Assembly: GCA_036507695.1 (NCBI GenBank)
Contig: DATCIR010000220.1
Coordinates: 1 to 43,004 of the forward strand
Direction: 5' to 3'
Length of the DNA stretch: 43,004 bases
Origin: Gammaproteobacteria bacterium
GTDB taxonomy: Bacteria; Pseudomonadota; Gammaproteobacteria; SZUA-152
The position numbers were made by a program, and so were the translations under genes. Shown one piece after another: positions 3,746 through 43,004 of this stretch (position 1 is the first letter of the stretch; every line of letters starts with the position of its first letter). The notes under the pieces were generated by a model. It had not been told where the DNA came from, searched no databases, and saw nothing but the letters and a program-made list of their open reading frames with translations.

Positions 3746-3793
3746 CACGGGGTGATTCATTTCGCATGGCATGGCGGTAGTAGTGATCTCTCG

Positions 3794-3827
3794 ACGGCGC
3801 GTGGCGGTTAATCGGGCCACGCGCCGT
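3794..3827 (+). terminator. Stem-loop with a perfect 12-bp stem, ACGGCGCGTGGC / GCCACGCGCCGT; possible terminator
   Basis: The inverted repeat has a 10-nt loop. The T-tail is weak (TGCTGTATT). Confidence 0.4.
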
Positions 3828-3946
3828 TGCTGTATTAGTGCTTAAGTTTTACTCCCATATTGAGTAATAAATTTGCATACCCTGGGTATTTGGTTTCTAA
3901 TTTAAGGCATTTCATCCACTATCGAATCTTTAACGAGAGCCAATTT

Positions 3947-7305: not shown

Positions 7306-8423
7306 AACCCATCACTGAATCACTGAACCGTTGTGCGCTTTACCCGGGTTTGGTGCTTGCACTGTTATTAACGGCCTGCGCCAGCCGGGAATACCGCGTG
7401 GATTACGAAGTGCAAGCGTCCGATGCCCAGGTCTGGCCGGCGCCGCCGGAAATACCCCGCTTCCGTTATGTCGGCACGCTGACCGGCGAGGATAACGTCA
7501 AGCCAGTGGAAGAAGGCAAGCGCTTCGGTGACTATGTCACCGACTTCTTCAGATGGGTGGTGGGATTGGTTGGCCCCAATCCGATACCCTTGGTATTGCA
7601 GCGGCCGCAGTCCGGTGTGATGGATGATAACGGCCGGCTGTACATTACCGATGTGAGCCGTCAGTCAATCATGGTGTTTGACTTGCAAAAAGGCACATTA
7701 ACCGAGTGGGAGCAAGCGACGCCTAACACCGGTTTCCTGACACCGGTGGGCATTACGCTGGGGCCCGCGGGCAGTATCCTGGTGGTGGATGCGGATCTGA
7801 AACAGGTGCTGCAGCTCGATGCCACCGGAAAGCCTGTCAAGGCGTTCGGCGCTGACACCTTCAAGCGCCCCACGGGCATCGCCCGGGATCCGGTCAAAGG
7901 CCGGATTTATGTTGCCGATACCCACGCGCACGATATAAAAGTTTTTGATGATAACGGCGCCCTCCTTAATGTTTTTGGCGAATATGGTACGGACGGCGGT
8001 GAATTTAATAGCCCCGCCCACCTGTCATTTGCGGAGGGGCTGCTCTATGTAACCGATACATTCAATACCCGGGTGCAGGTTTTAAGAGATTCTGGCGAAT
8101 TTAGACGTGAATTCGGTAAAAGAGGCTTGTATGTCGGGGATCTGGTCCGGCCCAAGGGGGTCGCCACCGATAGCGAGGGCAATATCTATGTCATTGAGTC
8201 GTTTCACGATCATTTGCTAGTATATAGTGCTAACGGGGAATTTTTGTTGCCGATTGGCGGGACGGGCGCGGGTATCGGACAGTTCTATTTGCCTTCCGGG
8301 GTGTGGACGGATAAAAACGACCGCATCTATATTGCGGATATGTTCAATGGGCGGGTGGTCATATTGCAATACCTGGGTGGGCGCTATGCCCGTGGCGCGG
8401 TTCAAAACGCGGTTCAGCCATAG
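7302..8423 (+). CDS. NHL-repeat beta-propeller lipoprotein
   Basis: ATGA start/stop overlap with the previous gene. The lipobox is LTAC. Repeats include YITD, YVAD, YVTD, YVIE and YIAD, plus GEFNSPAH and GQFYLPSG. Confidence 0.75.
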   Translation: MKPITESLNRCALYPGLVLALLLTACASREYRVDYEVQASDAQVWPAPPEIPRFRYVGTLTGEDNVKPVEEGKRFGDYVTDFFRWVVGLVGPNPIPLVLQRPQSGVMDDNGRLYITDVSRQSIMVFDLQKGTLTEWEQATPNTGFLTPVGITLGPAGSILVVDADLKQVLQLDATGKPVKAFGADTFKRPTGIARDPVKGRIYVADTHAHDIKVFDDNGALLNVFGEYGTDGGEFNSPAHLSFAEGLLYVTDTFNTRVQVLRDSGEFRREFGKRGLYVGDLVRPKGVATDSEGNIYVIESFHDHLLVYSANGEFLLPIGGTGAGIGQFYLPSGVWTDKNDRIYIADMFNGRVVILQYLGGRYARGAVQNAVQP

Positions 8424-8462
8424 TAGCGGCCGGTGCGGTTCAAAAAATGGTACAAGGTGAGC

Positions 8463-11267
8463 ATGCGAGTTAACAACGTTATAGTGACGGGGGTTATCGG
8501 ACTGGTGGTGCTACTAATCTGGCACGCTAATGCCAATGCTGACCGTGTTTCCGATATTCAAAACACCAAACATAATTTCTCCGCATTGCCTACGGATCCG
8601 AATTTCAATGTGCAACGGACTGTCAGGGCAACGCAGGAAGTCCAGATCTGCGTGTTTTGCCATACACCGCATGGCGCGGAAGCATCCGTCGGCCCCTTGT
8701 GGAACCGGCGGTTATCGACCGCGAATTATCAAACCTATGTGAGCGGTTCGCTGGACGCGGGACGGCCCGGGCTGGATCCTAGCAGTGCGGCGCAGGCGCT
8801 GCAGCAACCTAACGGGGTATCCAAACTTTGTTTGTCCTGCCATGACGGCACCCTGGCGATCGGCGCCGTCAATGTGTTGTGGGGACGCTTTACGGATCGC
8901 GTTGGCACGACCGCGGAGATTGCCATGCAGGGCACCGGCACCGGCGGCACGATGCCCGCGGGAGAGGGTACGCGAACCGGCTTTACCCGCAATCTCGGCA
9001 TCAACCTTACCAACGACCATCCGATATCGGTTCGTTACGATGCCACGCTGGCGACGGTCGATGGCGAAATGCGCTTACCCAGCCAGGTCGACGATATTGT
9101 CGTGCGCAGCGTTGATCCCTGGCCTACCAACCAGGGACAGCGTACCCGCACCGAATATATCCATCTGGAACCGGATCCGGGCACCACCACGGGCGGTTTG
9201 GTGCAATGCAACAGTTGTCACGATCCGCATATTCGCAGCACCGATCCCACCGAAAACATCAAGTTCCTGCGCCTGAACCGGTTCCAGAAAGTTCAGCCCC
9301 AGCAAGGCCAGTTTAGCGCGGCCAATGATATTATTTGCCTGGCCTGCCATGACAAAGCGGGCTGGGTGGGCTCGGCGCACGCCCATCCGCAGGTGGCCGA
9401 TGAAACCTACACCACGGCCGCCGCCCAAGTGCGGGAGTTCCCCACCTCGGGGGATGGCACCCAAGTGTGGGAAAGCGCCTGCCTGGCCTGTCACGACGCC
9501 CATACCGTGGAAGGCTCGCGCCGCCTGCTGCGGGAAGGCACCGATGGCGGCGTCATTACTTCTTCATCCGGTTACCGCATTAAAACCGGTACCGGCCAGG
9601 CGGCCATTGAAGAAACCTGTTATGCCTGTCATTCCGCGGACGGCGCCACCTTGGTGGGCCAGGGAACCACTACCAATTTCCAGGTGCCCGATATCAAGAC
9701 CGATTTCACCACCATGCGCATTCACATGCCGATTACTAATGCCGATCAAGCGGCGGGACAGGAACGGCATGATATTGGTTCACCCAATCCGGACGTTACC
9801 GATCCAAATGGTTTGGGAAAGGATTTTATTGAGAGTCCGGTTAATATGGGGCGCGGCAATTTAACCAACCGTCACGCGGAATGCACCGATTGCCATAACC
9901 CGCACCGGGTTACTAAAAAACGTCTGTTTAATGCGGACCCTTTTGCGCTCGACCCGGCCGGTACCCACAATCATACCCAGCCGCATAATAACCTGGCGTC
10001 GGGCGTGTTGCGCGGCACCTGGGGCGTGGAACCAGTTTATGGTTCAACAACCTTTATGAGTATACCGAACAGCTTTGACATCAAGCGCGGTAATCCGGGC
10101 ATCAACGCCAGCACGGCGGTTAACGCGGCCTATGTCACCCGCGAGTACCAAGTGTGCCTGAAATGTCATTCCAATTATGGCTACAGTGACGCGAACAATA
10201 ATTTTGGCACCAGCCCGCCGCGGCCCCAGTTGGGCTCGTTCAGCGGCGGCACCCCACCGGGAACCAATGACCTGGACAATTATACCAACCAGGCCATGGA
10301 ATATCAGTCGCCAACCGATCATCTGGGTGAAGGAACCTCCGGTTCTCCCACGGGCGCGGCGGCGGCGTACGCCACCAATAACCACCGTTCCTGGCATCCG
10401 GTGATGCGTGAAACCGGCCGCGATAGCGCCGAGCGCGGGGGCGCCAATGTGAACAATTGGCGCACGCCGTTCCAGACGCTAGGCACCCAAACCATGTATT
10501 GCACCGATTGCCATGGTTCGGATACCAATACCGCGGATGGCGTGGCGCCGCGTCCCAAGGGGAGCGGAACCAGCGAAGATGGGTTCCCCTGGGGACCGCA
10601 CGGCTCGATTAATGATTTCCTGTTGAAAGGCCAATGGAGCGGCAACCGTCTTACCAATACCGATGGTACGGGTAATCTGGGCACCGGTGGCGCGGGTTCG
10701 GAAAACCATTTGTGTTTTAAATGCCATGAATACAATCAATACGGCGACGCCGGCGGTGGCGTCACGGCGCAGAACAGCGGTTTTCGCACACCCAATGCCT
10801 GCATGGGTATGGGCGCCGGCTGTATGGGTGGCGGCGGAATGGGAATGGGCGCGATGGGCCCGAACAATAACTTGCACATTTACCATACCGCGCTGGTGCA
10901 AAACTGGCGTTGTAATTTGTGTCATGTCGCTATTCCCCATGGCTGGAAAAACAAGGCCTTCCTGGTGAACTTGAATGACGTGGGTCCCGAAGGTAATCAA
11001 CCGGCGGGCACGCAATTGCGCAATGGCGCTGCTGGCGGCGGTGGCGGCGGCATGGGTGGCGGTGGTGGCATGGGCGGTGGTGGCGCTGCGGTGGACGCGT
11101 TTACCCTCGGCCCTTATTACAATCGCGCGGCGTTAAAAGTGGTTAACTTTGCGGTGAGTGGCCAGTGGCTGCCGAATGATTGCGGTTCCGCCGGCGCGCC
11201 GGGAAATGGAGCGGTTGGCGTTGCCTGGATGTTCAATAGCAGTGAAGCGTGTAACAATTTGCCCTAA
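8463..11267 (+). CDS. Undecahaem c-type cytochrome (11 CXXCH) with two Gly/Met-rich low-complexity inserts
   Basis: AAGGTGA precedes ATG 8463 and an N-terminal TM/signal follows. The motifs are CVFCH, CLSCH, CNSCH, CLACH x2, CYACH, CTDCH x2, CLKCH, CFKCH and CNLCH. The N-terminal pattern is HNFS...CVFCHTPH...PLWNR...CLSCHDGT. Confidence 0.9.
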   Translation: MRVNNVIVTGVIGLVVLLIWHANANADRVSDIQNTKHNFSALPTDPNFNVQRTVRATQEVQICVFCHTPHGAEASVGPLWNRRLSTANYQTYVSGSLDAGRPGLDPSSAAQALQQPNGVSKLCLSCHDGTLAIGAVNVLWGRFTDRVGTTAEIAMQGTGTGGTMPAGEGTRTGFTRNLGINLTNDHPISVRYDATLATVDGEMRLPSQVDDIVVRSVDPWPTNQGQRTRTEYIHLEPDPGTTTGGLVQCNSCHDPHIRSTDPTENIKFLRLNRFQKVQPQQGQFSAANDIICLACHDKAGWVGSAHAHPQVADETYTTAAAQVREFPTSGDGTQVWESACLACHDAHTVEGSRRLLREGTDGGVITSSSGYRIKTGTGQAAIEETCYACHSADGATLVGQGTTTNFQVPDIKTDFTTMRIHMPITNADQAAGQERHDIGSPNPDVTDPNGLGKDFIESPVNMGRGNLTNRHAECTDCHNPHRVTKKRLFNADPFALDPAGTHNHTQPHNNLASGVLRGTWGVEPVYGSTTFMSIPNSFDIKRGNPGINASTAVNAAYVTREYQVCLKCHSNYGYSDANNNFGTSPPRPQLGSFSGGTPPGTNDLDNYTNQAMEYQSPTDHLGEGTSGSPTGAAAAYATNNHRSWHPVMRETGRDSAERGGANVNNWRTPFQTLGTQTMYCTDCHGSDTNTADGVAPRPKGSGTSEDGFPWGPHGSINDFLLKGQWSGNRLTNTDGTGNLGTGGAGSENHLCFKCHEYNQYGDAGGGVTAQNSGFRTPNACMGMGAGCMGGGGMGMGAMGPNNNLHIYHTALVQNWRCNLCHVAIPHGWKNKAFLVNLNDVGPEGNQPAGTQLRNGAAGGGGGGMGGGGGMGGGGAAVDAFTLGPYYNRAALKVVNFAVSGQWLPNDCGSAGAPGNGAVGVAWMFNSSEACNNLP

Positions 11268-11518
11268 GCTTTAAACGGCAGCCGTTGATCTGAAAATACC
11301 GAAAATAGCACGTCGATCCGGCAGCAACTACCGTCCGTCTGTTTAGCCCGCGGTTCTATGGTTAGAGGTTGGAACGCAGTTTTTTTAACGGCACGTGTTT
11401 ATTAATTTATAAACACTGCCGGTGAATTGCGCCGGGAACACGCTGGGTGTGCCGGCCTTTATCAAACCGGATTCCGCTTCCCGCGATGTACCGCGGGACT
11501 TTATAGAGTGGGTGTAGC

Positions 11519-13702
11519 ATGGGCTTTATTTTTTTTAACCGGCGGGCGCAGCGCTTGCTGGGATTATTTTTACTGGCCACAGTAACAAGCGCTCAGGCCG
11601 GTGTGCCCCGGTTCGCCTACGTAACCAATCCCTATGATCATACGATTTCCGGGTATTTTCTCGACGCAGAAAGCCGGATGTTCTTTAACGGTATGGTGTA
11701 TACCGGGGACAAATTTCCCGCGGCATTGATCATTCACCCAAACGGGAAATTTATTTACAGCGCCTCACGCACCGTGGATACCGCGCTCATTTATAAAATC
11801 GATCCGCGGACAGGCTGGTTAACGGAAACACCGGGTCCGCGCTTGCCTACCCGGCTGCGCTCGCCGTTCTCGTACGGATTTCACCCCTCGGGTAAATTTC
11901 TTTATGTCGCGGGACGCGGCGGCGGGGTTGCGGCGTTTACGGTTGATGAAGCAAGCGGCGCACTGGGTTATGTGCCGGGTTCCCCCTATAAAGCCGGTGA
12001 CCGCACCCGGTCTTTGACCGTACATCCGTCCGGCAAGTTTGTCTATGCGTCCAACGCCTACACCAATAATATTTCCGCCTACCGCGTTAACCAGTCGACC
12101 GGGGTTTTAACGGAGTTGCCTGATTCGCCGTTCTTCGCCGGTGAAGCCGGCCCCTTTGCCAGTACGATTGCAATGCTGCCGGATGCAACCGACAACAAAG
12201 GCGGCATTCCTTATTACACCGCGGCGCACCCGTCGGGCAAATTCGTCTATGTGGTAAACTGGATGGCCGCCAGTGTGTCGATATTCCGGGTGGATGAAAC
12301 GTCGGGGGATTTGTCCCTCATCGGCAAGCCCACAGCAACCGGAGATGCGCCCTATGCGGTGGCGGTGCACCCGTCCGGAAACTATGTGTTAGTGAGTACC
12401 TGGGGCGGGCATGACATTTATGTCTATACCGTTAATCTGCAAACCGGGGAATTGGAGCCTGTACCAGGCTCGCCCTTCGGCACCCTGGGATTTAAGCCCG
12501 TTGATATCAAGTTCAACAGCGATGGCAGCTTGGTGTTTGTGGCCAACAAAGACTCGAATAATGTGTCGATCTTTGACATGAATGTCACTACGGGTAAGTT
12601 AGCGCTGAAAGATTTCGCCATGACCCGGGCAGGCGCCCTGGATGCTGAACTGGTGACGGTGGAACAGCCGGTCACCCTGCTGCCGCATTATGCGTTTGTC
12701 CTTGATCAAGTGTCTGAATCATTAATCAGCTACCGCATCGATATTGCCACGGGTGACTTCAAGGAAGCGGCGCGCGCCAAGACGGGTAAACAGCCGGTAG
12801 CGGTGGCGCAGGATCCGCTGAACCGGTTTGTATATGTGGCCAACGCCGGTTCCAACAATGTGTCCGCGTTTGCCATTGATAGCGCTAGCGGGGCGCTAAC
12901 CGAGGTTGAGGGTTCACCGTATGCGGTGGGTGAAAATCCGCGCTCCATCGCCGTCGACGCCAATGGCTGGTACCTGTATACCTTAAACCACGGCAGCCAG
13001 GACATGTCGGTATTTTTAATTCACGTGAAAAAGGGCCAGTTGGCGGAAGCGCAAGGCTCGCCGGTGCCGATCAAAAAACAGCTGCTGAACCTGGCAACCG
13101 ACCCGACGTCGCGGTTTGTATACATTAACAGCCGCGACGGCAAATCCGTAAGCGTATATCGTTATCGGCAGGCGGTAACACCGTCGATCTTTGAAATTTC
13201 CGAGCATGGTTCGCCGTTTGTGTTTGATACGGTTCCCAATGATCTGGTGGTTGATCCCACCGGCCGGTTCGCCCTGGTGCTGCAAGGTGAAGCGCAACAA
13301 GTATCCATGTTTAACGTGCATGTGGCAACCGGCGCCCTGGAACCCATCAAGGAAAACCTGCAGCCCTACAAGATCGCTGGCAAACACGCTGTGCAAGCGG
13401 CGTTTCATCCCAGCGGCAAGTTTGCCTATGTGTTAAATGCCGGGAGCAAGGATATCGTGCAACTTAAACTGGACCGGCTTAACGGCAAGGTAAGTGAAAT
13501 CGACAAACCGGCCGCCATCCAGGGCAAGCCCTTGGCGTTCACCATTGATCCCTCCGGCCAGTATCTTTATGTGCTCAATGAAAAGGAAAAAGGTTTGGGT
13601 AAATACCGGATTGATAAAACCACGGGAAAGTTGACCAGGCTCGGTGAAGTTATGTTGCCGTATTCACCGGCGGCGCTGGTGATTTCGCGGGAATTTCAAT
13701 GA
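11519..13702 (+). CDS. Exported tandem lactonase-type (7-bladed, YVTN-like) beta-propeller protein
   Basis: A signal peptide is present. More than 12 repeats follow the pattern HPSGKF(V/L)YV.N....I..(Y/F). Confidence 0.7.
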   Translation: MGFIFFNRRAQRLLGLFLLATVTSAQAGVPRFAYVTNPYDHTISGYFLDAESRMFFNGMVYTGDKFPAALIIHPNGKFIYSASRTVDTALIYKIDPRTGWLTETPGPRLPTRLRSPFSYGFHPSGKFLYVAGRGGGVAAFTVDEASGALGYVPGSPYKAGDRTRSLTVHPSGKFVYASNAYTNNISAYRVNQSTGVLTELPDSPFFAGEAGPFASTIAMLPDATDNKGGIPYYTAAHPSGKFVYVVNWMAASVSIFRVDETSGDLSLIGKPTATGDAPYAVAVHPSGNYVLVSTWGGHDIYVYTVNLQTGELEPVPGSPFGTLGFKPVDIKFNSDGSLVFVANKDSNNVSIFDMNVTTGKLALKDFAMTRAGALDAELVTVEQPVTLLPHYAFVLDQVSESLISYRIDIATGDFKEAARAKTGKQPVAVAQDPLNRFVYVANAGSNNVSAFAIDSASGALTEVEGSPYAVGENPRSIAVDANGWYLYTLNHGSQDMSVFLIHVKKGQLAEAQGSPVPIKKQLLNLATDPTSRFVYINSRDGKSVSVYRYRQAVTPSIFEISEHGSPFVFDTVPNDLVVDPTGRFALVLQGEAQQVSMFNVHVATGALEPIKENLQPYKIAGKHAVQAAFHPSGKFAYVLNAGSKDIVQLKLDRLNGKVSEIDKPAAIQGKPLAFTIDPSGQYLYVLNEKEKGLGKYRIDKTTGKLTRLGEVMLPYSPAALVISREFQ

Positions 13703-20393: not shown

Positions 20394-22421
20394 ATGATTC
20401 CAGAACTGGGGCATTTTGCTTTAATACTGGCGCTGTGCGTCGCGACAGTGCAGGGTGTGTTCTCCATCGCCGGGGCGCAGCTGGGGGTACGTTCCTGGAT
20501 GGTGCTGGCAAAACCGGCGGCGCAATGCCAGTTTGTGCTGGTCGCGGTAGCCTTCGGATTTCTTACCTATTCCTTTATCGAAAATGATTTTTCCGTGCTC
20601 TATGTCGCCTCGCATTCCAATTCCCTGCTGCCGATCGAATACCGTATTTCCGCGGTCTGGGGCGGTCACGAAGGTTCCATGTTGCTGTGGGTGTTGTTGT
20701 TATCCGGCTGGTCGATGGCGGTGAGCCTGTTCAGCAAAAACCTCCCGGATGATATGGTGGCGCGGGTCATCGGTGTCATGGGGCTGGTCTCCGTCGGCTT
20801 TTATCTGTTTATTCTGTTTACCTCCAACCCGTTTGAAAGACTATTGCCCGCGGCTGTGGACGGCCGCGATCTGAATCCGCTATTGCAGGATCCCGGTTTG
20901 ATTATTCATCCGCCCATGCTGTACATGGGTTACGTGGGATTTTCGGTCGCGTTTGCGTTCGCCATAGCGGCACTACTGAGTGGCCGATTGGACGCCGCAT
21001 GGGCGCGCTGGTCGCGTCCCTGGACCACCGTGGCCTGGATGTTCCTGACGATGGGCATCGCCCTTGGCAGCTGGTGGGCGTATTACGAGCTCGGCTGGGG
21101 CGGCTGGTGGTTCTGGGATCCGGTGGAAAACGCATCGTTTATGCCCTGGCTGGTGGGTACCGCCTTGATTCATTCGCTCGCGGCAACGGAAAAACGCGGC
21201 AGCTTCAAAAACTGGACGGTGCTGCTGGCGATTTTTACCTTCTCATTAAGTTTGCTGGGCACCTTCCTGGTGCGTTCCGGCGTGTTAACGTCGGTACACG
21301 CGTTTGCCACCGATCCCGAGCGCGGCGTATTTATCCTGATGTTGCTGGTACTGACCATTGGTGTTTCGCTGGCCTTGTTTGCCTGGCGCGCGCCGAAAGT
21401 CGGCGTCGGCGGACGTTTTAACCTGCTGTCCCGGGAATCCGCCCTGTTGAGCAACAACGTATTGCTGGTGGTCGCCGCCGGCGCGGTCTTGCTCGGCACC
21501 TTATATCCGTTGCTATTAGATGCGCTCGACATGGGAAAAATTTCGGTGGGGCCGCCGTATTTTGACGCGGTGTTTATGCCCTTGATGGCGCCGGCTTTGT
21601 TTTTAATGGCGATTGGCCCGATGGCCCGCTGGAAGAAAACTGAGGTGCCCGAACTGGTCACCCGCTTGCGCTGGGCGGCGGTGGTTAGCCTTGTCATGGG
21701 CCTGTTGACGCCGGTTATAATGGGTGAGTGGGGAGCGGCTCGCAGCCTGGGCTTGACGCTGGCGTTCTGGATTCTTTGCAGCGTGGTGCTTATGTTGCAT
21801 GACCGCGTGCAAAAGAGTCCACGTTCTGGCAATGCAATCAGCAAAATTGCGGGTTTACCCAATTCCTTTCTGGGCATGTGTGTGGCTCATAGCGGCGTGG
21901 CGGTGTTTGTCATTGGCGTCACCATGGTGCAGAGCTATCAAATCGAAAAAGATGTGCGCATGGAGGTGGGTGATACCGTTGAATTGGGCGGCTATGAATT
22001 CCGCTTTGAGGGCGTGACACGTGTTAAAGGCCCTAACTTTAATGCCGATCGCGGGCAAGTGGTGGTAAGTAAGGGCGGTAAAGTGGAGAGCGTAATGTTC
22101 CCGGAAAAACGCATCTATACCGTGCAAACCATGCCGATGACCGAAGCGGCGATAGACACCGGGATAACGCGCGACCTTTATGTTTCACTGGGCGAGCCGG
22201 TCAGTAATGGCGCCTGGAGTGTGCGTGTGTATTATAAGCCGTTTGTTGATTGGGTTTGGAGCGGCGCCTTTATCATGGCGCTGGGTGGATTGCTGGCGAT
22301 TACCGACCGCCGCTACCGCCTGGTAAGCCGAAAAGTAGCGGAGGAAGAAGACCGCGAAGCAAAGGGCGCTGCTGTTTCAGGTGCTCCTGTTTCGAGTAAA
22401 ACAGTGACTGGAGAGTCGTAA
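20394..22421 (+). CDS. ccmF: Cytochrome c haem lyase subunit CcmF
   Basis: 675 aa and polytopic. The WWD motif is WGGWWFWDPVENASFMPWL. Confidence 0.95.
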   Translation: MIPELGHFALILALCVATVQGVFSIAGAQLGVRSWMVLAKPAAQCQFVLVAVAFGFLTYSFIENDFSVLYVASHSNSLLPIEYRISAVWGGHEGSMLLWVLLLSGWSMAVSLFSKNLPDDMVARVIGVMGLVSVGFYLFILFTSNPFERLLPAAVDGRDLNPLLQDPGLIIHPPMLYMGYVGFSVAFAFAIAALLSGRLDAAWARWSRPWTTVAWMFLTMGIALGSWWAYYELGWGGWWFWDPVENASFMPWLVGTALIHSLAATEKRGSFKNWTVLLAIFTFSLSLLGTFLVRSGVLTSVHAFATDPERGVFILMLLVLTIGVSLALFAWRAPKVGVGGRFNLLSRESALLSNNVLLVVAAGAVLLGTLYPLLLDALDMGKISVGPPYFDAVFMPLMAPALFLMAIGPMARWKKTEVPELVTRLRWAAVVSLVMGLLTPVIMGEWGAARSLGLTLAFWILCSVVLMLHDRVQKSPRSGNAISKIAGLPNSFLGMCVAHSGVAVFVIGVTMVQSYQIEKDVRMEVGDTVELGGYEFRFEGVTRVKGPNFNADRGQVVVSKGGKVESVMFPEKRIYTVQTMPMTEAAIDTGITRDLYVSLGEPVSNGAWSVRVYYKPFVDWVWSGAFIMALGGLLAITDRRYRLVSRKVAEEEDREAKGAAVSGAPVSSKTVTGES

Positions 22422-23005
22422 TGGTTCGTTATTTGGTGCCGCTGGTTATTTTTTTTGTATTAGCAGGTTTTTTGTATGTGGGTTTGGATTTGAAACCGCG
22501 CGAGGTGCCATCGCCCTTTATCAATAAGCCGGCACCCGGTTTTCAGCTGCAACAGCTGCATTCCATGAACGAATTGTTTTCCAACAAGGATATGTTGGGT
22601 AAGGTGTGGTTGTTGAATGTCTGGGCATCCTGGTGTGTCGCTTGCCGTCAGGAACATCCGGTATTGGTCGATATGGCGCGCCGGGGTGAAGTGCCCTTGT
22701 ATGGCTTGAATTATAAAGATACGCCCAACAACGCCAAACGCTGGCTAAATGAACACGGTGATCCTTATACATTAAGCGCGGTTGATTACCAGGGCAAAGT
22801 GGGTATCGATTTCGGGGTGTACGGTGTGCCCGAGACATTCATTATTGATAAACAAGGCGTGATCCGGCACAAGGTTATCGGGCCGGTTTCCTATCAAGAA
22901 TTAAGTGCCTGTATCATGCCGATCGTGAATGAATTGAATAAGCGCGAGCAGATAGATCCGGCGGCGTTGGCCGTGTTGACTGAGGTAAGAAAGGCATGTA
23001 CTTAA
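22421..23005 (+). CDS. ccmG: Thiol:disulfide interchange protein CcmG/DsbE
   Basis: The active site is WASWCVACRQEHP and a GVYGVPETFIID motif is present. The start overlaps the ccmF stop. Confidence 0.9.
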   Translation: MVRYLVPLVIFFVLAGFLYVGLDLKPREVPSPFINKPAPGFQLQQLHSMNELFSNKDMLGKVWLLNVWASWCVACRQEHPVLVDMARRGEVPLYGLNYKDTPNNAKRWLNEHGDPYTLSAVDYQGKVGIDFGVYGVPETFIIDKQGVIRHKVIGPVSYQELSACIMPIVNELNKREQIDPAALAVLTEVRKACT

Positions 23006-23505
23006 TGAGGCGTTATATCGCTTGTTTGTTGCTGTTGGGGCTGATGGCCGGCGGGGCGGCGGTCTCCGCCAAGGAAGCCGCCCCGCTGTCGGCCGATCCC
23101 GAAATGGAAAAAATGGTGAACGAAATAGCCGCTGAATTGCGTTGCTTGGTTTGCCAGAATCAAACCATTGCCGATTCGCACGCCGACCTGGCGGTGGATT
23201 TGAAAAACCAGGTGCGGGAAATGGTGCGCCAGGGCAAGACCCGCGACGACGTGGTTGACTATATGGTGCAGCGGTACGGTGATTTTGTGCGTTATCGTCC
23301 GCCCGTCAAGCCGACTACTTATTTACTGTGGGTGGGTCCATTCCTGTTGTTGGCGGGCGGTTTTACTATCCTGACGGTTAATTTGCGCAAACGCAGGCAA
23401 ATAACCACTGACGCGCCGCTCAGCGAAGAAGAGCAGCAAAAGCTGGAATCCATTCTCCATTCCAAAAACAAGACCGCAGGAAATAAAAAAGGCGAGGATT
23501 ATTAA
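22996..23505 (+). CDS. ccmH: Cytochrome c maturation protein CcmH
   Basis: Signal peptide, LRCLVCQNQ motif and a C-terminal TM helix. An alternative ATG lies at 23005. Confidence 0.9.
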   Translation: MYLMRRYIACLLLLGLMAGGAAVSAKEAAPLSADPEMEKMVNEIAAELRCLVCQNQTIADSHADLAVDLKNQVREMVRQGKTRDDVVDYMVQRYGDFVRYRPPVKPTTYLLWVGPFLLLAGGFTILTVNLRKRRQITTDAPLSEEEQQKLESILHSKNKTAGNKKGEDY

Positions 23506-23507
23506 TC

Positions 23508-24824
23508 ATGGTGGTATTTTCTACGGTGGTGTTGCTGTTAATTGTAGCGGCGTTGTTGTTTCTGCTGCCTCCCTTGATTCAGCGCCAGACATCGAAGAGT
23601 GCGATCGAACGTAAAGAACTGAACATCATGTTATACAAGGATCAGCTTGCCGAACTGGAGGCTGACCTCAAAAGTGAAACCATTACCCGGGAACAGTTTG
23701 AGCAGGCCCACGCGGATCTGGAAAGAAATTTGTTACAGGATGTTGCGGACGGCGATGGCGGCAAGCCGCGCGCGTTGACGATTTCCGGCAATCTTGCGGC
23801 GATCGTGGTGGGTGTCGCGATTCCGGCGGTTGCGATCGGTCTTTATGCGCATCTTGGCACGGGCAAGGTCGGATTTGAACCGGAAAACTTCCGCCCGGAG
23901 CAGTCCACACAAGGGCATGAGGGCACCTTGGAGCAGCAGCTCGCCAAGCTGCAGGAACATTTAAAACAAAATCCCGGTGACGCGGAAGCGTGGATGATGC
24001 TGGCGCGTTCCTACTATTTCCTTAAGCAATACCAGACTGCCAGCGACGGGTTTGCCAAAGCCGTGGCGATAACCAGCGAGCAGAACCCGGATCTGCTGGC
24101 GGATTATGCGGATGCGCTGGCGATGGCCAGCGGGCGTAACATGGCCGGCAAGCCCTACGAGCTGGTCAAGAAAGCGTTGACCATCGACCCCGGTCACCAG
24201 AAATCACTGTGGCTGGCGGCTACCGCCACATATCAGGCGCAGGATTTCAAAACCACGCTCGATTACTGGCTGACGCTGCGGAGTCAATTCCCCGAAGGAT
24301 CGGAAAATTATCTGCAAATGACCCGAAATATCGCCGAAGTTAAACAATTTCTGGGCATGGCCACGGATGCAGAAATCGCGATCGTGCAACGGGCCGAGAC
24401 CGGAACTGTCACTCCAGCGGCGGGCGGTGAAGCCGCGGCCACGGCCGCTACTGCTTCCCCCAATGCTTCCGCCAGTGTTTCCGGCAAAGTGTCCGGCGTA
24501 GTCTCGTTGGACCCATCCATGCAGGCTAAGATATTACCCAGTGATACCTTATTCGTGTTTGCCCGGGCCGCCAGCGGTCCGCGTATGCCCTTGGCGATCA
24601 TCAGGACATCGGTGGCGGAATTGCCGTTGACTTTTGCACTGGATGATTCGCTGGCGATGAATCCGCAAATGAAGATTTCCAATTTCAAGGAAGTCATCGT
24701 TGGCGCGCGGATTTCCAAAACCGGCAATGCGATGCCGCAAAGCGGAGATCTGTCCGGTCAATCGGACGTTGTTCCGTTGGGTGCGGAGGGGTTGCAAATA
24801 ACCATAAACGGTATCGTGCCGTAA
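23508..24824 (+). CDS. ccmI: CcmI (TPR-containing apocytochrome chaperone)
   Basis: Two N-terminal TM helices, a TPR block (AEAWMMLARSYYFLKQYQTASDGFAKAV...) and its position after ccmH. Confidence 0.8.
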   Translation: MVVFSTVVLLLIVAALLFLLPPLIQRQTSKSAIERKELNIMLYKDQLAELEADLKSETITREQFEQAHADLERNLLQDVADGDGGKPRALTISGNLAAIVVGVAIPAVAIGLYAHLGTGKVGFEPENFRPEQSTQGHEGTLEQQLAKLQEHLKQNPGDAEAWMMLARSYYFLKQYQTASDGFAKAVAITSEQNPDLLADYADALAMASGRNMAGKPYELVKKALTIDPGHQKSLWLAATATYQAQDFKTTLDYWLTLRSQFPEGSENYLQMTRNIAEVKQFLGMATDAEIAIVQRAETGTVTPAAGGEAAATAATASPNASASVSGKVSGVVSLDPSMQAKILPSDTLFVFARAASGPRMPLAIIRTSVAELPLTFALDDSLAMNPQMKISNFKEVIVGARISKTGNAMPQSGDLSGQSDVVPLGAEGLQITINGIVP

Positions 24825-35394: not shown

Positions 35395-35458
35395 AATGAA
35401 AATAAACCCGAACGCTGTTTGCCTTGTTAAACCCCGTTAGCATATATGGCTCCATTAT

Positions 35459-35494
35459 TTACTTCAAATCACAGGCTTACTTCAAATCACAGGC
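35459..35494. repeat. Perfect tandem 18-mer TTACTTCAAATCACAGGC x2
   Basis: Copies at 35459-35476 and 35477-35494, 65 nt upstream of the iaaA start. Confidence 0.8.
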
Positions 35495-35551
35495 TGGCTC
35501 CAGAGCGATTAATTTATTAATGCCTGGAGATAAGTATCGGCTAAAAGTGAC

Positions 35552-35717
35552 CTAGCCCGCATTTCTCACCAGGCGGCCGCTAACGATCAAGAAAAGACGG
35601 AAAAACAAATGGCTATGCATCATAAATCGAAGACACACTGTTCAGCTCCCTAGCCTATCGCGGTTCAGACTGGTCTTCGCGTCTGCTCCCGCGATCCTGG
35701 TGAGAAATGCGGGCTAG
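35552..35717. repeat. Perfect 22-bp inverted repeat CTAGCCCGCATTTCTCACCAGG around a 122-bp spacer, at the truncation point of intI
   Basis: Arms at 35552-35573 and 35696-35717. No ORF inside and no TSD seen. Confidence 0.7.
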
Positions 35718-35978
35718 TGCAACTCATCATGCCAGGATTGAAAATTACCGGCCTGACTATTGTAACAGCTTGGCGATCGAAAACGGTGCTCATGGATTTC
35801 CCGCCAACATAAAATTGTTTTCTTAGCTTCTGAACAGCAACTGTTGTGCCAGCGCCTAACCCGCTGTTTTTGCGAGCCGTTAAAAGTGAATGCCGCACTG
35901 TAATGGTTCATTGACCAATTTAGTAGTGCACGGTTTATGAGCGCAGCGCGCGCACGGAGAAATTTTACGGCTTTGGCA

Positions 35979-36941
35979 TTATGTGACCCACTCCTTATAA
36001 CCCTTGGCATTGCGCACCAAAATATGATTGTAGGAAAAATCAATATCGAATATCCGCAAGCGGGCGCATTCAAGCAGCCGTAAACCACAGCCATATAAAA
36101 GATTCGCCATTAAACGATGCGTATGATTATTTATACCGGAAAACAACCGGGTTATCTCCGCGCGGGATAGCACCACGGGTAACCGCCGGGGTTTTTTGGA
36201 GTGTGTAAAGTGCCCAATATCGCCTAACTCTTTTTCCAAAACGTATTTATAAAAAAATACCAGCGCACACAATGCCTGCCCCTGTGTGCTGCTCGATACC
36301 TGCCGCTTAATCACACGATATTCAAGAAACGCGGCTACGGCACTGCCATCCAACGCCGCCGGGTCGTTCATGGCATGGAACGCCACGTATCTAGCCACCC
36401 CGTTTTCGTAAGACTGCTCGGTTCGGATCGCATAATTTTTAACACGTATTTCGGTAATCAATTTATTGAAGTGCTGCGGATACGCAATGCGCACTTTATT
36501 GATCAAGCGATTATCGGACGTGGATAAGACAACGGTGTCGCCGCCGTTACTTTGCGGTGCGCTGTAATTAGAACTTACTGGCCTGTGGTTGTCCCTGGCC
36601 ACGGTAGCGTGCGACGGCTCCAACCCGGCCGCGGATTCAATCCAGTCATGCCACGGAAATTGGCTAGCCCAATCCGTCCGTACCCTGGCAACAAACAATA
36701 TCTTTAACGCATCAACCGCTTGTTTAAACTGCCAATCCTCCAGCCTGGGATTTCGGCCCAATTTCTCCCGGTAACTTTGAACCGTTTGCACAGTATGTTG
36801 CGCCATTTGAATGGTGGGGTGCGCCTTAATGAATTCCTCGACTCGCTTTACATACCAGCGAATGGAAGGCGTGGGAACATTATCAGTTTTTGTTTTGTTG
36901 ATATAGTTCTCCCAAAACCGGTCGATAGCCTCCGTTTTCAT
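35979..36941 (-). pseudogene. intI: Integron integrase IntI, C-terminal catalytic half lost; carries a ~145-aa N-terminal extension
   Basis: IRVKNYAIRTEQSYENGVARYVAFH...VSSSTQGQALCALVFFYKYVL...RLPVVLSRAEI...LLYGCGLRLLECARLRIFDIDF...ILVRNAKGYKE matches the IntI N-terminal and core-binding pattern. The frame stops at the GKGxKDR position. Only weak frame-shifted remnants follow (for example GLGAGTTVAVQKLRKQF). No HxLRHSFATHLL or TMIYTH box is present. Confidence 0.75.
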
Positions 36942-38587: not shown

Positions 38588-38650
38588 ACATAACAAATAA
38601 GGATAGGTCGCGTGAGCGCAGCGAACCGCGACCTTATCCATTGGTTGAAC
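38588..38650 (+). other. attC site 1
   Basis: R'' is ACATAAC and R' is GTTGAAC (GTTRRRY). The imperfect stem is AAGGATAGGTCGCG / CGCGACCTTATCC with a bulged base. It starts 2 nt after the stop codon. Confidence 0.7.
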
Positions 38651-38856: not shown

Positions 38857-39904
38857 TTATCCGGCACGCCAACTGGGCGGAACGAAGGCGATGATGCGCA
38901 TGGGACATCGGCACCGCCGGCAGATAAACGCCGGGCGGATGCCAGGCTCCGGCACAGGCAGTGTTACGTTTAGAACCATCTGGATCAGCTGCCGGATCTT
39001 GGCCGCATTGCCGTGCAAGAAACCATAATCCCGAGTCCGGCGAAACCCTTTGGGCAAGGCATGCTGAAACACGCGCCACAGGAAGTCCTCGCCGTTGCAG
39101 CGCTGGATTTTAAACGCGTTGGTTTCGCTATCACGGTAACGGAACGTCACCTGGGCGCCATCATCGGACAAGATGTTGTTCTCATCGATGACACCGCGAT
39201 ACAAATAACGCGACAGGTATTTCAACGCGGGCAATCCACTGCCCACATGATCACAATGCACCACCCAGTGCGCGGGTAGATTGGCCGGCAGCGTAAATCC
39301 GGCCTTGGCGATGGCCGCCAGCATCCGCGCGCGAAACACCGTGGCCAGGTTGATCTCGTTAAACAGATACTGGCCGCGGCGCTTTTTCCACTGGCGCCGG
39401 GCGCGCAGGTAGCACCCGCCGGGGATGATCATGTGCACGTGGGGATGAAAGGCCAATCGCCGCGAATGCGTATGCAGCACGGCGGTTAAACCCAGCTCAC
39501 CCCCGAGGGCCTTGTCATTCAGACCAAAGGTTTTGAGGGTGCTGACCGCGCACTCGAACAGCAGGGCGTACAGCGTGCGTTGATGATGCCACGCTAGGTT
39601 TCGCAGCTGTCGTGGCACGGTAAAGGTTGCCATATAGTACTCGACAGGCAACAGCTTCTGCGCCTGACGTTGCAACCACTGCCCCGTGTCATAGTGCTGG
39701 CAAGCCGCAACTGCGATGCCCGCAGCTGTGATAGCGCTCGGCTTGGGTTTGACACTTTGGACAAGACAGCGTCATGTGCCCATAGCGTTCAGTACGACAG
39801 GCCAGCACCGCATTGATAGCCTTTTGCATGGCCGGTGTCATGGTGTCGGCATATTTGGCGTCAAAGCCACTGCGGTAGGTGTGCACAACGGAGGCGAGAT
39901 TCAT
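38857..39904 (-). pseudogene. IS91-family transposase, frameshifted after the N-terminal zinc-binding domain
   Basis: The N-terminal ORF has CPKCQ...HSCGHRSC. The frame then breaks. The expected continuation ACQHYDTGQWLQRQAQKLLPV is in the next frame (about 39680-39700). The core has AVLHTHSRRLAFHPHVHMIIPGG. Confidence 0.75.
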
Positions 39905-40859
39905 GCTTTAACCTCCGCAAAGCGCAGATCCAGGCCGTTGACCAGGTCATTGATCATGCGGTTGGCGTTTTGCGCCGCCGGCTCGGTGAGCTGAGTGTAG
40001 ACGGCGGTGGTCTTGGGACTGTCGTGGCCCATCGCCTGCTGAATGGCGCGCAAGTGCACGCCGGCGGCCATTAAATGCGCCCCGTAACAATGGCGTAAAC
40101 TGCGAATCGAAATACGTTTGTGGATCCCGCATGCGGTGACGATCTTCTTAAACGACACCTGCGTGCCGCCCCGGCTCATGGGTTTTTTTGCCGCAAACTG
40201 CTGCTCACTGGTGCGGCCCTCGTGGAACAACCAGACGGGATTTCGATGGGTAGACCAGTATTGGCGTAAGGCATACAATGTGAGTTCGGGCAAAATGACA
40301 TAGCGATCTTTCCGGCCTTTGCCGTTGCGAATGTGCGCACGGTTTAACTGGGAATCGATGTCACCGACCTTCAGATTCAGGGCTTCGCCCAGGCGCAGGC
40401 CCATGCTGTAAGTGGTGAGGATAAACACCTGGTAGCGCAACTCGCGGGTGGAGTTGATCAGCCTTGCCACCTCCTCAGGGGTGAGAATGTCGGGCAACGA
40501 ACGCACCTGGGGCGGTTTGGCCGCTATTTGCTCCATGCAATAGCGGCATTTCCGCCATCCCTGGCGGTCACGATATCCACCCACTGCCAGTGTTTATCGA
40601 GCACATGTTTATAGAAAAACTGCAAGCCGTTGCGATCAAGTTTGACGGTACTCCAGGAATGGGACTGTACCAGCGAGGAAAAGTAGTCTTTTAAATCCGC
40701 CACGCTGAGACGGTCAGGGCAGCAATCGAAGTACTCGGCAATGCGCCGCACGGCGCGGGCATAGGCATCAATCGTGGCCCTGGCCTTGCCCTGACGCTTG
40801 AGGGCTTTAACGTGGGCTTGATACAGATTATTGAAACGGCTTTGTTGTGATCGGTTCAT
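39901..40859 (-). pseudogene. Tyrosine recombinase (phage-integrase family), split by one frameshift near 40524-40584
   Basis: The N-terminal SAM-like part is TIDAYARAVRRIAEYF...LSVADLKDYF. The C-terminal part has RLGEALNLKVGDID, GKGRKDRYV, SIRSLRHCYGAHL and GHDSPKTTAVYTQL (R, K, H-x-x-R, H and Y all present). Its TGA overlaps the transposase ATG (ATGA). Confidence 0.75.
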
Positions 40860-40969: not shown

Positions 40970-41041
40970 GTTCAACAACCGGTTCGAGCCGACCTTCGGG
41001 TCGCTGCGCTCCCCTTCGGCGGCTCAAACGGAACGTTAGGC
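40970..41041 (+). other. attC site 2
   Basis: R'' GTTCAAC is the exact complement of GTTGAAC at 38644-38650, where this cassette starts. R' is GTTAGGC. The stem is GGTTCGAGCCG / CGGCTCAAACGGAAC. The central TCGCTGCGCTCC is shared with attC 3 and, inverted, with attC 1. Confidence 0.8.
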
Positions 41042-41292: not shown

Positions 41293-41637
41293 ATGGAAAT
41301 AGAAAAACTAAAACTTCTTCATGACCACACCAAGCACGTGACCACATTATCAACTGGCGCAATACTTATTTTGGTCGCGTTTTACGAAAAATTACCGAAA
41401 ATACCAGTGGCTCATAAACTCATTCCTGTTTCTCTCCTGTTTTTTGTAATTTGCATCTTATCTGCAACACTGGCTCAAATAGTTGTAGTGGTATCGCATT
41501 CTAATGAAGATAAAGAATATGAGAAAAATACTTTAGAGTTTACGGACAAAGTATTTTTGGCGTCATGGGTTACGTTTGCGGCAGGTATGGTAACTTTGTG
41601 CATTACGGGAATGTTTGATTTATTTATTGCCGCCTAA
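41293..41637 (+). CDS. Hypothetical 114-aa membrane protein, 3 predicted TM helices (cassette 3, second ORF)
   Basis: GAGGAA precedes the ATG. The stop TAA lies inside the R'' core of attC 3, as is typical of cassettes. Confidence 0.55.
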   Translation: MEIEKLKLLHDHTKHVTTLSTGAILILVAFYEKLPKIPVAHKLIPVSLLFFVICILSATLAQIVVVVSHSNEDKEYEKNTLEFTDKVFLASWVTFAAGMVTLCITGMFDLFIAA

Positions 41638-41712
41638 CTAGCGCGTAAACATGGACGCATTTTTCGGTCGCTGCGCTCCCTACAAATACGCCAGTTACGC
41701 TTTACGTTAGCC
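41632..41712 (+). other. attC site 3
   Basis: R'' GCCTAAC is the exact complement of GTTAGGC at 41035-41041. R' is GTTAGCC. The stem is GCGTAAAC / GTTACGCTTTACG. Confidence 0.8.
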
Positions 41713-41734: not shown

Positions 41735-42085
41735 ATGTTTACAATCCAAGATATCCCAAATGTAGTGGGTTGGCTGTTTGGTATTCTCCCTGCACTAGGA
41801 GTGATGTATTGGGCGTGGTTAAGCCGGGGCGAAAGCTGGAGATTGTCGGTTTTATGTTGCGGGTTCCTGCTTGTAGCACTCGGTGTGTGGATGGCAGGTC
41901 TTTTTATAGAAATAATTGATTATATTGAAACTCTTCCAGCAGAAAAAACGGGGCGCGATTCTGTTTGGGCGGTACTGAAAAATAGTAGCGCTATATGGCT
42001 TTTATTTTTTCCGGCCGCTGCAGGGGGAGTTGGAGTCAATCTGATTTCTGCATGGCTTACTACGAAGAAACCAAGCAATGGCTAA
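41735..42085 (+). CDS. Hypothetical 116-aa membrane protein, 3-4 predicted TM helices (cassette 4)
   Basis: GAGAGGAA precedes the ATG. The stop TAA lies inside the R'' of attC 4. Confidence 0.55.
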   Translation: MFTIQDIPNVVGWLFGILPALGVMYWAWLSRGESWRLSVLCCGFLLVALGVWMAGLFIEIIDYIETLPAEKTGRDSVWAVLKNSSAIWLLFFPAAAGGVGVNLISAWLTTKKPSNG

Positions 42086-42164
42086 CAAGGCAAATTCACA
42101 CGGACGGCAAAAAGCGCCGCTCGTTCCTCGCTCTGCTTTTTGCCGCCGGTGATTTGCGGCGTTA
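42080..42164 (+). other. attC site 4, interrupted in its R' core by a group II intron
   Basis: R'' GGCTAAC is the exact complement of GTTAGCC at 41706-41712. The inner stem is a perfect 10 bp, GGCAAAAAGC / GCTTTTTGCC. R' reads GTTA and is followed at once by GTGCG. Confidence 0.75.
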
Positions 42165-43004
42165 GTGCGCCAAGCGAAGCTTGGTGCATCTTGCAGGGTG
42201 AAAGTCCCTGTCGGGTAAGGGCTAACCACCCACCCGTATCGAGTGTTGCGCCCATGGCGGAACCGAAGTTTGTTTTGTAAGAAACGAATTTCCAAAGGTG
42301 AACAAAGTGGGTGAAGCGTAGAGCCGGCCCCGCGAAGCGTTTTGGGTCCACAGAGAATTGTGCAGGCCGTAGGGCGTTCGCAGCGCCTGAAAGTTGGAAC
42401 AGCTTCGAAAAGCCAATTGAGATCGACGAGGGTTTTAACGCACACCGAAGTCAACACAGAAGCATCCGCTAGGGTAAGGATGTGAAGGATCTCCGGAGTC
42501 CTCAGACTGTGGCATGTACAAACAGATGCATTCAAGAACTTGGGAGCCCCATCGAGGCCCTGATAGGAAGACATGGAAGGAGATTGAATTGCTAGAGACA
42601 CGAAGCACTGCGGAGACGGGACTATGCTGGTTTCCGGAAATGGATTCATACTATCAGGAAAGCTCCGAAGCCGGTAAAGCGGATAAGGGCCGATGGCTCG
42701 GTGGGAGTCGGATCAAGCGTAGTACTCGGAGCGTGGGAGAGCCACGTACAAGGGGAAGGACTTGACGGAAGTACGCAGCCTGCAAAGCCCCCTCATACCC
42801 GACGCGGAAGATTGGGAATACTATGAGCTCAGCTTTTTGCGGGGAATAGCCTACAAAGCAAAGACGCAACCGGCTTACCGGTTTCGAGACTTATCGCGCT
42901 GCCTCGATGAAACGCTGCTGAGGTATTGCTTTCGTAAGTTAAACAAGAAAGCGGCCTCAGGGGTGGATCGAGTCACGTATCTTGGCTATCGGGAACATCT
43001 CACG
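42165..43004 (+). mobile_element. Group II intron (5' part; ribozyme domains I-III and the start of the domain IV ORF), continues beyond the window
   Basis: It starts with the GUGCG 5' consensus at 42165, followed by about 600 nt of non-coding structured sequence. A reverse-transcriptase ORF then begins. Confidence 0.8.
42762..43004 (+). CDS. Group II intron-encoded reverse transcriptase/maturase, N-terminal fragment
   Basis: The frame is open from 42723. AAGGGGAAGGA precedes TTG 42762. My translation is ...AYKAKTQPAYRFRDLSRCLDETLLRYCFRKLNKKAASGVDRVTYLGYREHLT, the typical RT-0/RT-1 region (LNK.AA.GVD.VT). Confidence 0.75.
   Translation, partial: MTEVRSLQSPLIPDAEDWEYYELSFLRGIAYKAKTQPAYRFRDLSRCLDETLLRYCFRKLNKKAASGVDRVTYLGYREHLT

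Follow-up and report, generated by a model that had tools for sequence, protein, structure and literature searches.

What kind of intron interrupts the core of an integron recombination site, and how does it find this target? The question is raised by the 3′ end of a 43,004-nt stretch of DNA from a gammaproteobacterium (contig DATCIR010000220.1 of assembly GCA_036507695.1; the entire stretch is hereafter called the window), where one attC in an array of gene cassettes gives way, four bases into its R′ core, to a group II intron. The analysed copy is cut by the end of the window, so that its 5′ 840 nt of ~2,070 nt (42165–43004, + strand) are available there; the remaining 3′ part was taken from L001, a near-identical longer public contig of 9,142 bp, which extends 5 kb past the window and shows two mismatches to it over 4,011 shared bases. 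L001 is also one of three public contigs that encode the 116-aa cassette protein. A previous reading of this DNA—made from its letters without database searches, and referred to here as the sequence-only reading—had taken the element for a relative of the IIC-attC introns, i.e., of class C introns that target attC stem-loops. We consider another answer likely: a full-length group II intron without endonuclease, with a IIB-like ribozyme and a reverse transcriptase (RT) closest to class E, which belongs to a large clade that homes to the R′ core on the top strand of attC sites.

On the + strand, the R″ box GGCTAAC (42080–42086) is followed by a long imperfect inverted repeat, by CCGGTGATTTGCGGC and by GTTA (42161–42164), after which the intron starts with GTGCG (42165–42169). 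The 5′ exon part of this attC site spans 42080–42164 and includes a bulged L″/L′ stem; the core motif stretch, which is distinct from this stem, reads CGTTAGCC. The stop codon of the upstream cassette open reading frame (ORF; 41735–42085) falls within GGCTAAC—the usual arrangement of cassette ORF and R″—and the + strand is therefore the top strand of the attC. The sequence-only reading was right here: the switch from GTTA to GTGCG happens exactly within the R′ core of an otherwise intact attC (42161–42164 | 42165), and intron and cassette ORFs share one strand. The core is missing its final GCC in the window, since these three bases are located beyond the intron. In L001, where the same reading had expected a completed core upon extension of the contig, the 3′ exon reads GCCATTGGG, with the ATG of the next cassette ORF 16 nt on, and the joined exons GTTA and GCC indeed give GTTAGCC, which is identical to the R′ core of the neighbouring attC (41632–41712, + strand). 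When the 3′ exon is included, R″ and R′ (GGCTAAC:GTTAGCC) close a long bulged stem in the folded site (−28.2 kcal/mol). This restoration is not a matter of chance, since 88 of 117 independent junctions of related introns share a 5′ exon ending in GTTA or GTTG. The intron thus sits between A4 and G5 of the R′ core GTTAGNC, and the point where the integrase crosses over (G|TT) lies 3 nt to its 5′ side.

The full intron corresponds to positions 3172–5241 of L001 and amounts to ~715 nt without its ORF, with 597 nt before (42165–42761) and 117 nt after the coding region. Domain I is recognised by the Rfam model RF02005 (group-II-D1D4-6) at 42201–42509 of the + strand with 80.8 bits (gathering score 49, E-value 4e-21), which is the sole Rfam hit within the whole window. 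Within a hairpin of this domain, a lineage-variable insertion of ~89 nt relative to the Rfam model (42258–42345, + strand) differs in sequence between relatives, which join 42261 to 42349 with other letters in between. The terminal loop of a further domain I hairpin presents the exon-binding site EBS1, UAACG (42436–42440, + strand), complementary to the intron-binding site IBS1 of the exon, CGTTA (42160–42164, + strand; CGUUA in RNA), and a C at 42501 (+ strand) is the candidate EBS3 for pairing with the first base of the 3′ exon, a G. Extension through L001 recovered domains V and VI at 5167–5241 (RF00029, 43.7 bits); the terminal loop of domain V (here GAAAA) is five nucleotides long, as in ~94 of 100 relatives. 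In domain VI, an A bulges out 7 nt before the 3′ end and is followed by CCGU-GAC; the intron ends in ...CUACCGUGAC. With these two ribozyme matches and an encoded RT/maturase that passes its family model, the identity as a group II intron stands, and so does the earlier description of about 600 nt of structured sequence free of ORFs ahead of an RT gene: the 597 nt hold no long sense ORF. On the opposite strand, a 215-aa ORF (42002–42649, − strand) spans the attC and the 5′ part of the intron, and gene callers annotate it on each of the three contigs. Since it has no family hit and overlaps with conserved ribozyme sequence, it is in all likelihood spurious.

The RT/maturase begins with a TTG after a purine-rich stretch; its N-terminus (42762–43004, + strand) contains LNKKAASGVDRVT. 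In L001, the ORF, which is placed in domain IV, is complete and uninterrupted (451 aa, 3769–5124) and includes the YADD motif. It scores 339.7 bits against TIGR04416, the NCBI model for group II RT/maturases (cut-off 300), and matches the Pfam family RVT_1 with an E-value of 3.8e-33, while the maturase domain GIIM stays just below its cut-off (21.7 versus 23 bits). A Pfam scan of the 451 aa found RVT_1 and GIIM alone and no endonuclease (D/En) domain. An identity as retron, diversity-generating retroelement (DGR) or defence-associated RT (DRT)—a grouping with retrons or DGRs had been named as what would speak against an intron—was rejected, as NCBIfam models for retrons, DRTs and abortive infection (Abi) RTs reach at most 66 bits with cut-offs of at least 200.

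The class of this RT is where our analysis departs from the sequence-only reading. Among labelled references, the closest match in BLASTP or phmmer comparisons is a Sr.me.I4-type intron of Sinorhizobium meliloti, class E, with 286 bits and 40% identity. Lower scores were obtained for the four solved class C RTs (137–148 bits), the class D intron of pBpOF4-01 (143 bits), Sr.me.I2 of class g1 (137 bits), Ni.ha.I1 of class g3/F (134 bits), LtrA of class ML (121 bits), T.el4h of class CL (111 bits) and the pO157 RT (EcI5, class CL; 108 bits); these references are the basis of the classification. Given the scores of the pO157 RT and T.el4h, membership in CL1—suggested by UHB.I2, an intron located next to an attC (PMC7923331)—was rejected. 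The label of the S. meliloti reference follows from its 98.7% identity to a disrupted copy on pRmeGR4b, as the disrupted class E intron S.me.I4 is located on this plasmid and the introns of S. meliloti belong to classes C, D, E and G only (PMC5894124). This reference reaches only ~155 bits with class C RTs, and its domain V has the ends GAGC...GAUC, same as in the studied intron. In a neighbour-joining (NJ) tree of 96 RTs with few labelled references, it is sister to the clade, as is an unlabelled Bacillaceae intron, and classes D, g1 and g3 lie further out. With one labelled class E reference at 40% identity, the intron is called class-E-like rather than class E proper; its clade may be nested in class E as a subclass or stand next to it as a sister.

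A membership in the established IIC-attC lineage, as in S.ma.I2-like introns, appears hardly credible to us in light of these data. The resemblance is nevertheless real: the intron resides in an attC and is devoid of an endonuclease domain, its IBS1 is short and an IBS2 was not detected, and among RTs of solved structure it is those of class C that match best in sequence. Yet these class C scores are level with those of classes D, g1 and F and far from the 286 bits of class E. The ribozyme of ~715 nt compares with ~400 nt for IIC introns and 450–700 nt for classes E and F, and the five-nucleotide loop of domain V is an idiosyncrasy of just these two classes (PMC3753933). Comparison of the orientation with described attC-targeting introns, a check that the sequence-only reading had proposed, speaks against its IIC-attC-like label as well: IIC-attC introns insert into the bottom strand of attC sites, opposite to cassette transcription (PMC3001079), whereas the studied intron occupies the top strand in sense orientation. 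A 2015 review gives attC targeting as a property of class C only, seen there in one sub-lineage, and has introns of all other classes home to long, sequence-defined sites (PMC4424553).

That a class-E-like intron came to rest in an attC core could still be the accident of a single copy, and the relatives are informative on this point. Protein searches yield hundreds of close RT homologues in metagenomes, with identities of up to 88%. A sample of 160 loci from genomes and metagenomes (RT identity 49–86%; loci are denoted by L and a number), in which both intron ends were placed with nhmmer, provided 117 distinct 5′ junctions. The 5′ exon ends in GTTA at 80 and in GTTG at 8 of these, and a C occupies position −5 at 96; further upstream, the exon is not conserved. 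Most relatives pair UAACG as EBS1 with CGTTA as IBS1. Where the exon differs, EBS1 differs along with it—CCATT/AAUGG in L056, L125, L127 and L128, CATTA/UAAUG in L016, CGTTC/GAACG in L018 and L105, and AGTTA/UAACU in L043—and GTTG exons retain the UAACG EBS1 through a G-U pair. EBS1 and IBS1 hence covary through at least five independent compensatory variants. The alignment column of the candidate EBS3 (42501 in the window) follows the first base of the 3′ exon: 35 junctions combine C with G, and 11 of the 13 T-type ones combine A with T, so that a single EBS3–IBS3 pair (C with G) probably takes part in target recognition. For an EBS2–IBS2 interaction, exon positions −20 to −6 were compared with windows of alignment columns, and no pairing above control was found (maximum complementarity 0.16 versus 0.11–0.14 in permutations).

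From the junction counts and the EBS1/EBS3 rule, a consensus target of CGTTA|G follows, i.e., the R′ core GTTA|GNC together with the preceding C. In the NJ tree, CGTTA targets occur in nearly every sub-branch and a few sub-lineages are retargeted, so that this specificity goes back to the ancestor of the clade. The studied intron is one member of an extensive clade whose specialisation is the CGTTA|G within the R′ core on the top strand of attC sites.

Some features of the relatives stand beside this rule. The intron 5′ ends read UCGCG (53), GUGCG (25), GAGCG (19) or GCGCG (14), so most deviate from GUGYG in the first two bases, and each variant is confined to an RT sub-clade of its own with its own 3′ end—GAG(A), GUC/UAC or GAC—as seen, e.g., in L084 at 132, L019 at 504 and L064 at 770. 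For UCGCG-type relatives, a 3′ boundary at ..GAG|A.. was discarded, as the joined cores would contain an extra A and the EBS3 column would mismatch. Their 3′ splice site is probably ..GAGA|G.., which would give GTTAGGC or GTTAGCC and fits EBS3 as well as a head-to-tail tandem copy in L024. Such tandem introns are found in L024 (9121), L141 (2671), L004 (807) and L105 (4124), with the second copy starting 0–2 nt after the first and no attC between them; reverse splicing beside a resident copy, template switching and circle integration are candidate origins. The "catalytic triad" of domain V (L001 5169–5201 and relatives) reads AGC in 46 of 100 relatives and AAC in the other 54, and its middle base opposes a purine (G.A or A.G) instead of forming the usual G.U wobble.

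Does the intron read more than these five to six bases? Unconstrained minimum free energy (MFE) folding of spliced exons proved too crude for calling attC sites, as only 29 of 89 paired their GTT upstream despite many visible attCs. It was replaced by constrained folds and an explicit count of the R″–spacer–L″/L′–spacer–R′ helix, requiring an AAC 40–150 nt upstream of the GTT, spacers of 2–6 nt and an L″/L′ helix of at least nine Watson–Crick pairs. This geometry is present at 37 of 85 GTT junctions (44%), compared with 3.3% of 1,500 control GTT sites and 16.7% of 420 control CGTTA sites from the same array-rich loci. The terminal 120 nt of 5′ exons are also more strongly folded than controls (−18.8 versus −13.6 kcal/mol, p = 9e-9). 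Both attC geometry and structured 5′ exons are more common at insertion sites than the CGTTA motif alone would entail.

These numbers bear on a purely sequence-based targeting, in which CGTTA|G would be read through EBS1 and EBS3, R′ cores would merely be the commonest exposed copies of the motif and the hairpin would be irrelevant. Such targeting would accommodate the clear use of five to six paired bases, the many CGTTA junctions with no attC recognisable to the geometry test and the sub-lineages that have a changed EBS1 and reside at non-attC sites. It remains an unlikely account in our view, as attC geometry is 2.6 times as frequent at the junctions as at CGTTA sites of the same loci and 13 times as frequent as at GTT sites, and even junctions with a low attC score have structured 5′ exons (−17.7 versus −13.6 kcal/mol in controls). 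The window itself points in the same direction: CGTTAG occurs at 12 sites on both strands, three of which are attC cores, and the intron resides in one of these three. The other two are empty although they are perfect CGTTA|G targets of the same array—the core at 41034 (ACGTTAGGC) of the attC at 40970–41041 and the core at 41705 (ACGTTAGCC) of the attC at 41632–41712, which reads ACGTTA|GCC (both + strand).

Signs that the lineage is active are found in assembled Logan contigs of public metagenomes and metatranscriptomes that were queried with the respective stretch of the window. In DNA metagenomes from soil (three) and marsh (one), the attC 3′ half plus the first 100 intron nucleotides reach a k-mer depth 50–700 times that of the adjacent unique cassette. 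The same intron 5′ end occurs in metagenome contigs behind other attC 3′ ends, e.g., ...CTGCCGGTTACGGCGA-CGTTA, and related attCs continue through GTTAG without an intron. In sediment and wetland metatranscriptomes, the conserved 5′ ribozyme of relatives is present at high depth.

A life cycle that combines these observations would start with transcription from the cassette promoter: co-oriented with the cassettes, the intron would be transcribed as a part of the array transcript. Maturase-assisted splicing would then restore both GTTAGCC and the downstream cassette mRNA, with ligated exons reading ...GGCGTTA-GCCATTGG.... The ribonucleoprotein (RNP) released in this process might reverse-splice into single-stranded attC top strands at replication forks, with cDNA synthesis primed by the nascent lagging strand, by analogy with other endonuclease-less introns (PMC4424553, PMC5894124). 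The attC hairpin or the single-strandedness of the target might contribute the extra specificity. In the window, the + strand shows a positive GC skew throughout, which fits an intron in the lagging-strand template if the skew reflects replication. The insertion may also leave the recombination site in use. The first intron G replaces the fifth core base, so that the interrupted site still reads GTTAG and the intron comes to lie just inside the next cassette; the site may therefore stay recombinogenic and the intron travel with the downstream cassette, and an integrase acting in trans could still move both together.

The sense bias of the insertions might alternatively stem from the RNA level: the intron would reverse-splice into cassette array RNA, where attC top strands form RNA hairpins, and would enter DNA by reverse transcription and recombination. 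All targets lie on the transcribed strand of arrays, and relatives as well as attC-containing transcripts are abundant in metatranscriptomes, as this route would require. Still, endonuclease-less introns such as RmInt1 invade single-stranded DNA at forks directly (PMC5894124, PMC4424553), an invasion with which the positive GC skew on the intron's strand agrees, and direct evidence for an RNA route is absent in the studied lineage. We regard this route as very improbable compared with direct entry into DNA. Neighbouring ORFs in the relatives are in sense orientation only at 14 junctions and antisense only at 4; most other junctions have too little flank for this comparison.

Another possibility is that the studied copy is an immobile relic that has lost both splicing and movement. 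Its RT carries AAG at the position where many relatives have an ATG, such that the TTG four codons downstream must serve as the start, and the host integron itself is decaying. Against this, the 451-aa ORF is uninterrupted with YADD present, and the RT matches every invariant column of an alignment of 25 sequences (which it does by definition); close relatives of 451 aa also exist. On the RNA side, GUGCG, EBS1, domain V and the bulged A of domain VI are all intact. We hold it to be unlikely that this copy is a relic.

Several points weigh against our interpretation of a class-E-like, attC-specialised and mobile intron. The contigs of public runs show presence and multiplicity of the intron, which is different from splicing or mobility. 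The changed start codon noted above belongs here too, and so does the class assignment, which relies on a single labelled reference at 40% identity and a tree with few references. Described introns of classes E and F have apparent EBS2–IBS2 pairs, unlike the studied clade, in which none was detected. About half of the CGTTA junctions fail the attC geometry test—a strict one, which several visibly attC-like sites fail—and a requirement for the hairpin is thus not proven. Finally, gene strand bias confounds any inference from GC skew.

The array that hosts the intron comprises an integrase remnant followed by co-oriented ORFs, each with an attC behind it. These attCs (+ strand) are located at 38588–38650, 40970–41041, 41632–41712 and from 42080 onward, with more in L001 downstream of the intron. 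The integrase was taken for dead before, and it is: the pseudogene (35395–36941, − strand) contains an ORF (35979–36941) that stops after the GKG-K box, only positions 3–66 of the 172-position profile of the catalytic domain are matched and stops fill the 585 bp that follow until an asparaginase gene begins. Two matches to Phage_int_SAM_4, the N-terminal SAM-like domain, within the 320 aa of the remnant suggest that the N-terminus ahead of the truncated catalytic domain was duplicated or extended. The sequence-only reading had suggested that retrohoming may be the only active mobility left here; the array with its dead integrase also holds another kind of mobile element, an IS91-family-like element (38857–40859, − strand) with a Y2_Tnp transposase, Zn_Tnp_IS91 and two tyrosine recombinase ORFs. 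The remaining window is ordinary chromosome, with genes for cytochrome c maturation, multihaem cytochromes and a sulfate permease, and the integron is therefore chromosomal. This flank (7302–13702 and 20394–24824, + strand) includes a 944-aa protein with a doubled CXXCH, beta-propeller/NHL proteins and CcmF/CcmI.

At about even odds, we would go one step further and see in this clade a second, independently evolved and widespread intron lineage specialised on attC sites: class-E-like, inserted at CGTTA|G of the top strand, transcribed with the cassettes and spliced from their mRNA, exploiting attC top strands that are exposed on the lagging-strand template and, being 3 nt inside the following cassette, able to be carried along by the integrase. 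If so, structure-assisted homing that relies on a short IBS1 extends beyond class C, and two intron parasites, mirror images of each other, live in integron arrays. An extensive clade near class E that has an IBS1 of 5 bp, lacks IBS2 and targets the attC core of the opposite strand would amount to a convergent specialisation on integrons. The clade could also serve as a testable system for the way in which a DNA hairpin or a single-stranded context is read by an intron RNP, for the reason why the leading-strand template holds the bottom strands of cassette arrays, and for the tolerance of sense insertions that splicing can remove, where antisense IIC-attC introns block transcription. On the practical side, integron annotation pipelines will split such attCs (GTTA ... 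2 kb ... GNC) and mistake the RT for a cassette gene.

How does this clade relate to systems described so far? Like the IIC-attC introns—S.ma.I2 and its relatives (PMC3001079, PMC4424553)—it is devoid of an endonuclease and has the integron attC as its natural target, and both use a short IBS1 and an IBS3 without IBS2 and insert where the attC hairpin of the invaded strand has its 3′ foot. The IIC-attC introns differ in their class C RT, small IIC ribozyme and antisense position in the bottom strand, where they block transcription from the cassette promoter Pc and bring along outward promoters; the studied intron, in contrast, combines a class-E-like RT with a ribozyme of ~715 nt and a five-nucleotide domain V loop, and lies in sense on the top strand at GTTA|GNC. 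Class E introns such as Sr.me.I4, Cl.be.I2 and Ps.tu.I1 (PMC3753933, PMC5894124) share the missing endonuclease domain and the loop of domain V, with the Sr.me.I4-type intron having the closest labelled RT (40%, 286 bits) and the same domain V ends, GAGC...GAUC. Unlike the studied clade, described class E introns use ordinary homing sites, and the Sr.me.I4-type copy resides neither at CGTTA nor in an attC.

Other introns near attC sites come closer in position. Sonbol and Siam (2021; PMC7923331) described H.ha.F1 and H.ha.F2, two 5′-truncated class E fragments with attC-like structures upstream in a Halorhodospira cluster of attC sites lacking an integrase (CALIN). The same study reports UHB.I2, a IIB1 intron directly after an attC and in cassette orientation, whose 5′ end UUGCG is like that of some clade members and which is assigned to CL1, unlike the studied clade. 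Introns on the attC top strand or in cassette orientation were also reported from an integron of Enterobacter cloacae, as an unusual IIC intron, and from Shewanella algae KC-Na-R1 (cited in PMC7923331 and PMC9229058); both were reported to be of class C. IS1111-attC insertion sequences (reference 49 of PMC9229058) are specialised on attC sites as well, but they are DNA transposons and cannot be removed at the RNA level. Beyond the reports in PMC7923331 and PMC9229058, the full-text literature (subscription papers were outside this scope) yielded no further group II introns in the top strand or same orientation of attC sites. attC-specific group II introns are thus known; what is new is the class, strand, site and scale of the studied clade, which is apparently an undescribed lineage. 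H.ha.F1, H.ha.F2 and UHB.I2 are single cases without a demonstrated target rule—whereas the present analysis defines the junction, the rule of pairing and a specificity that holds across the clade.

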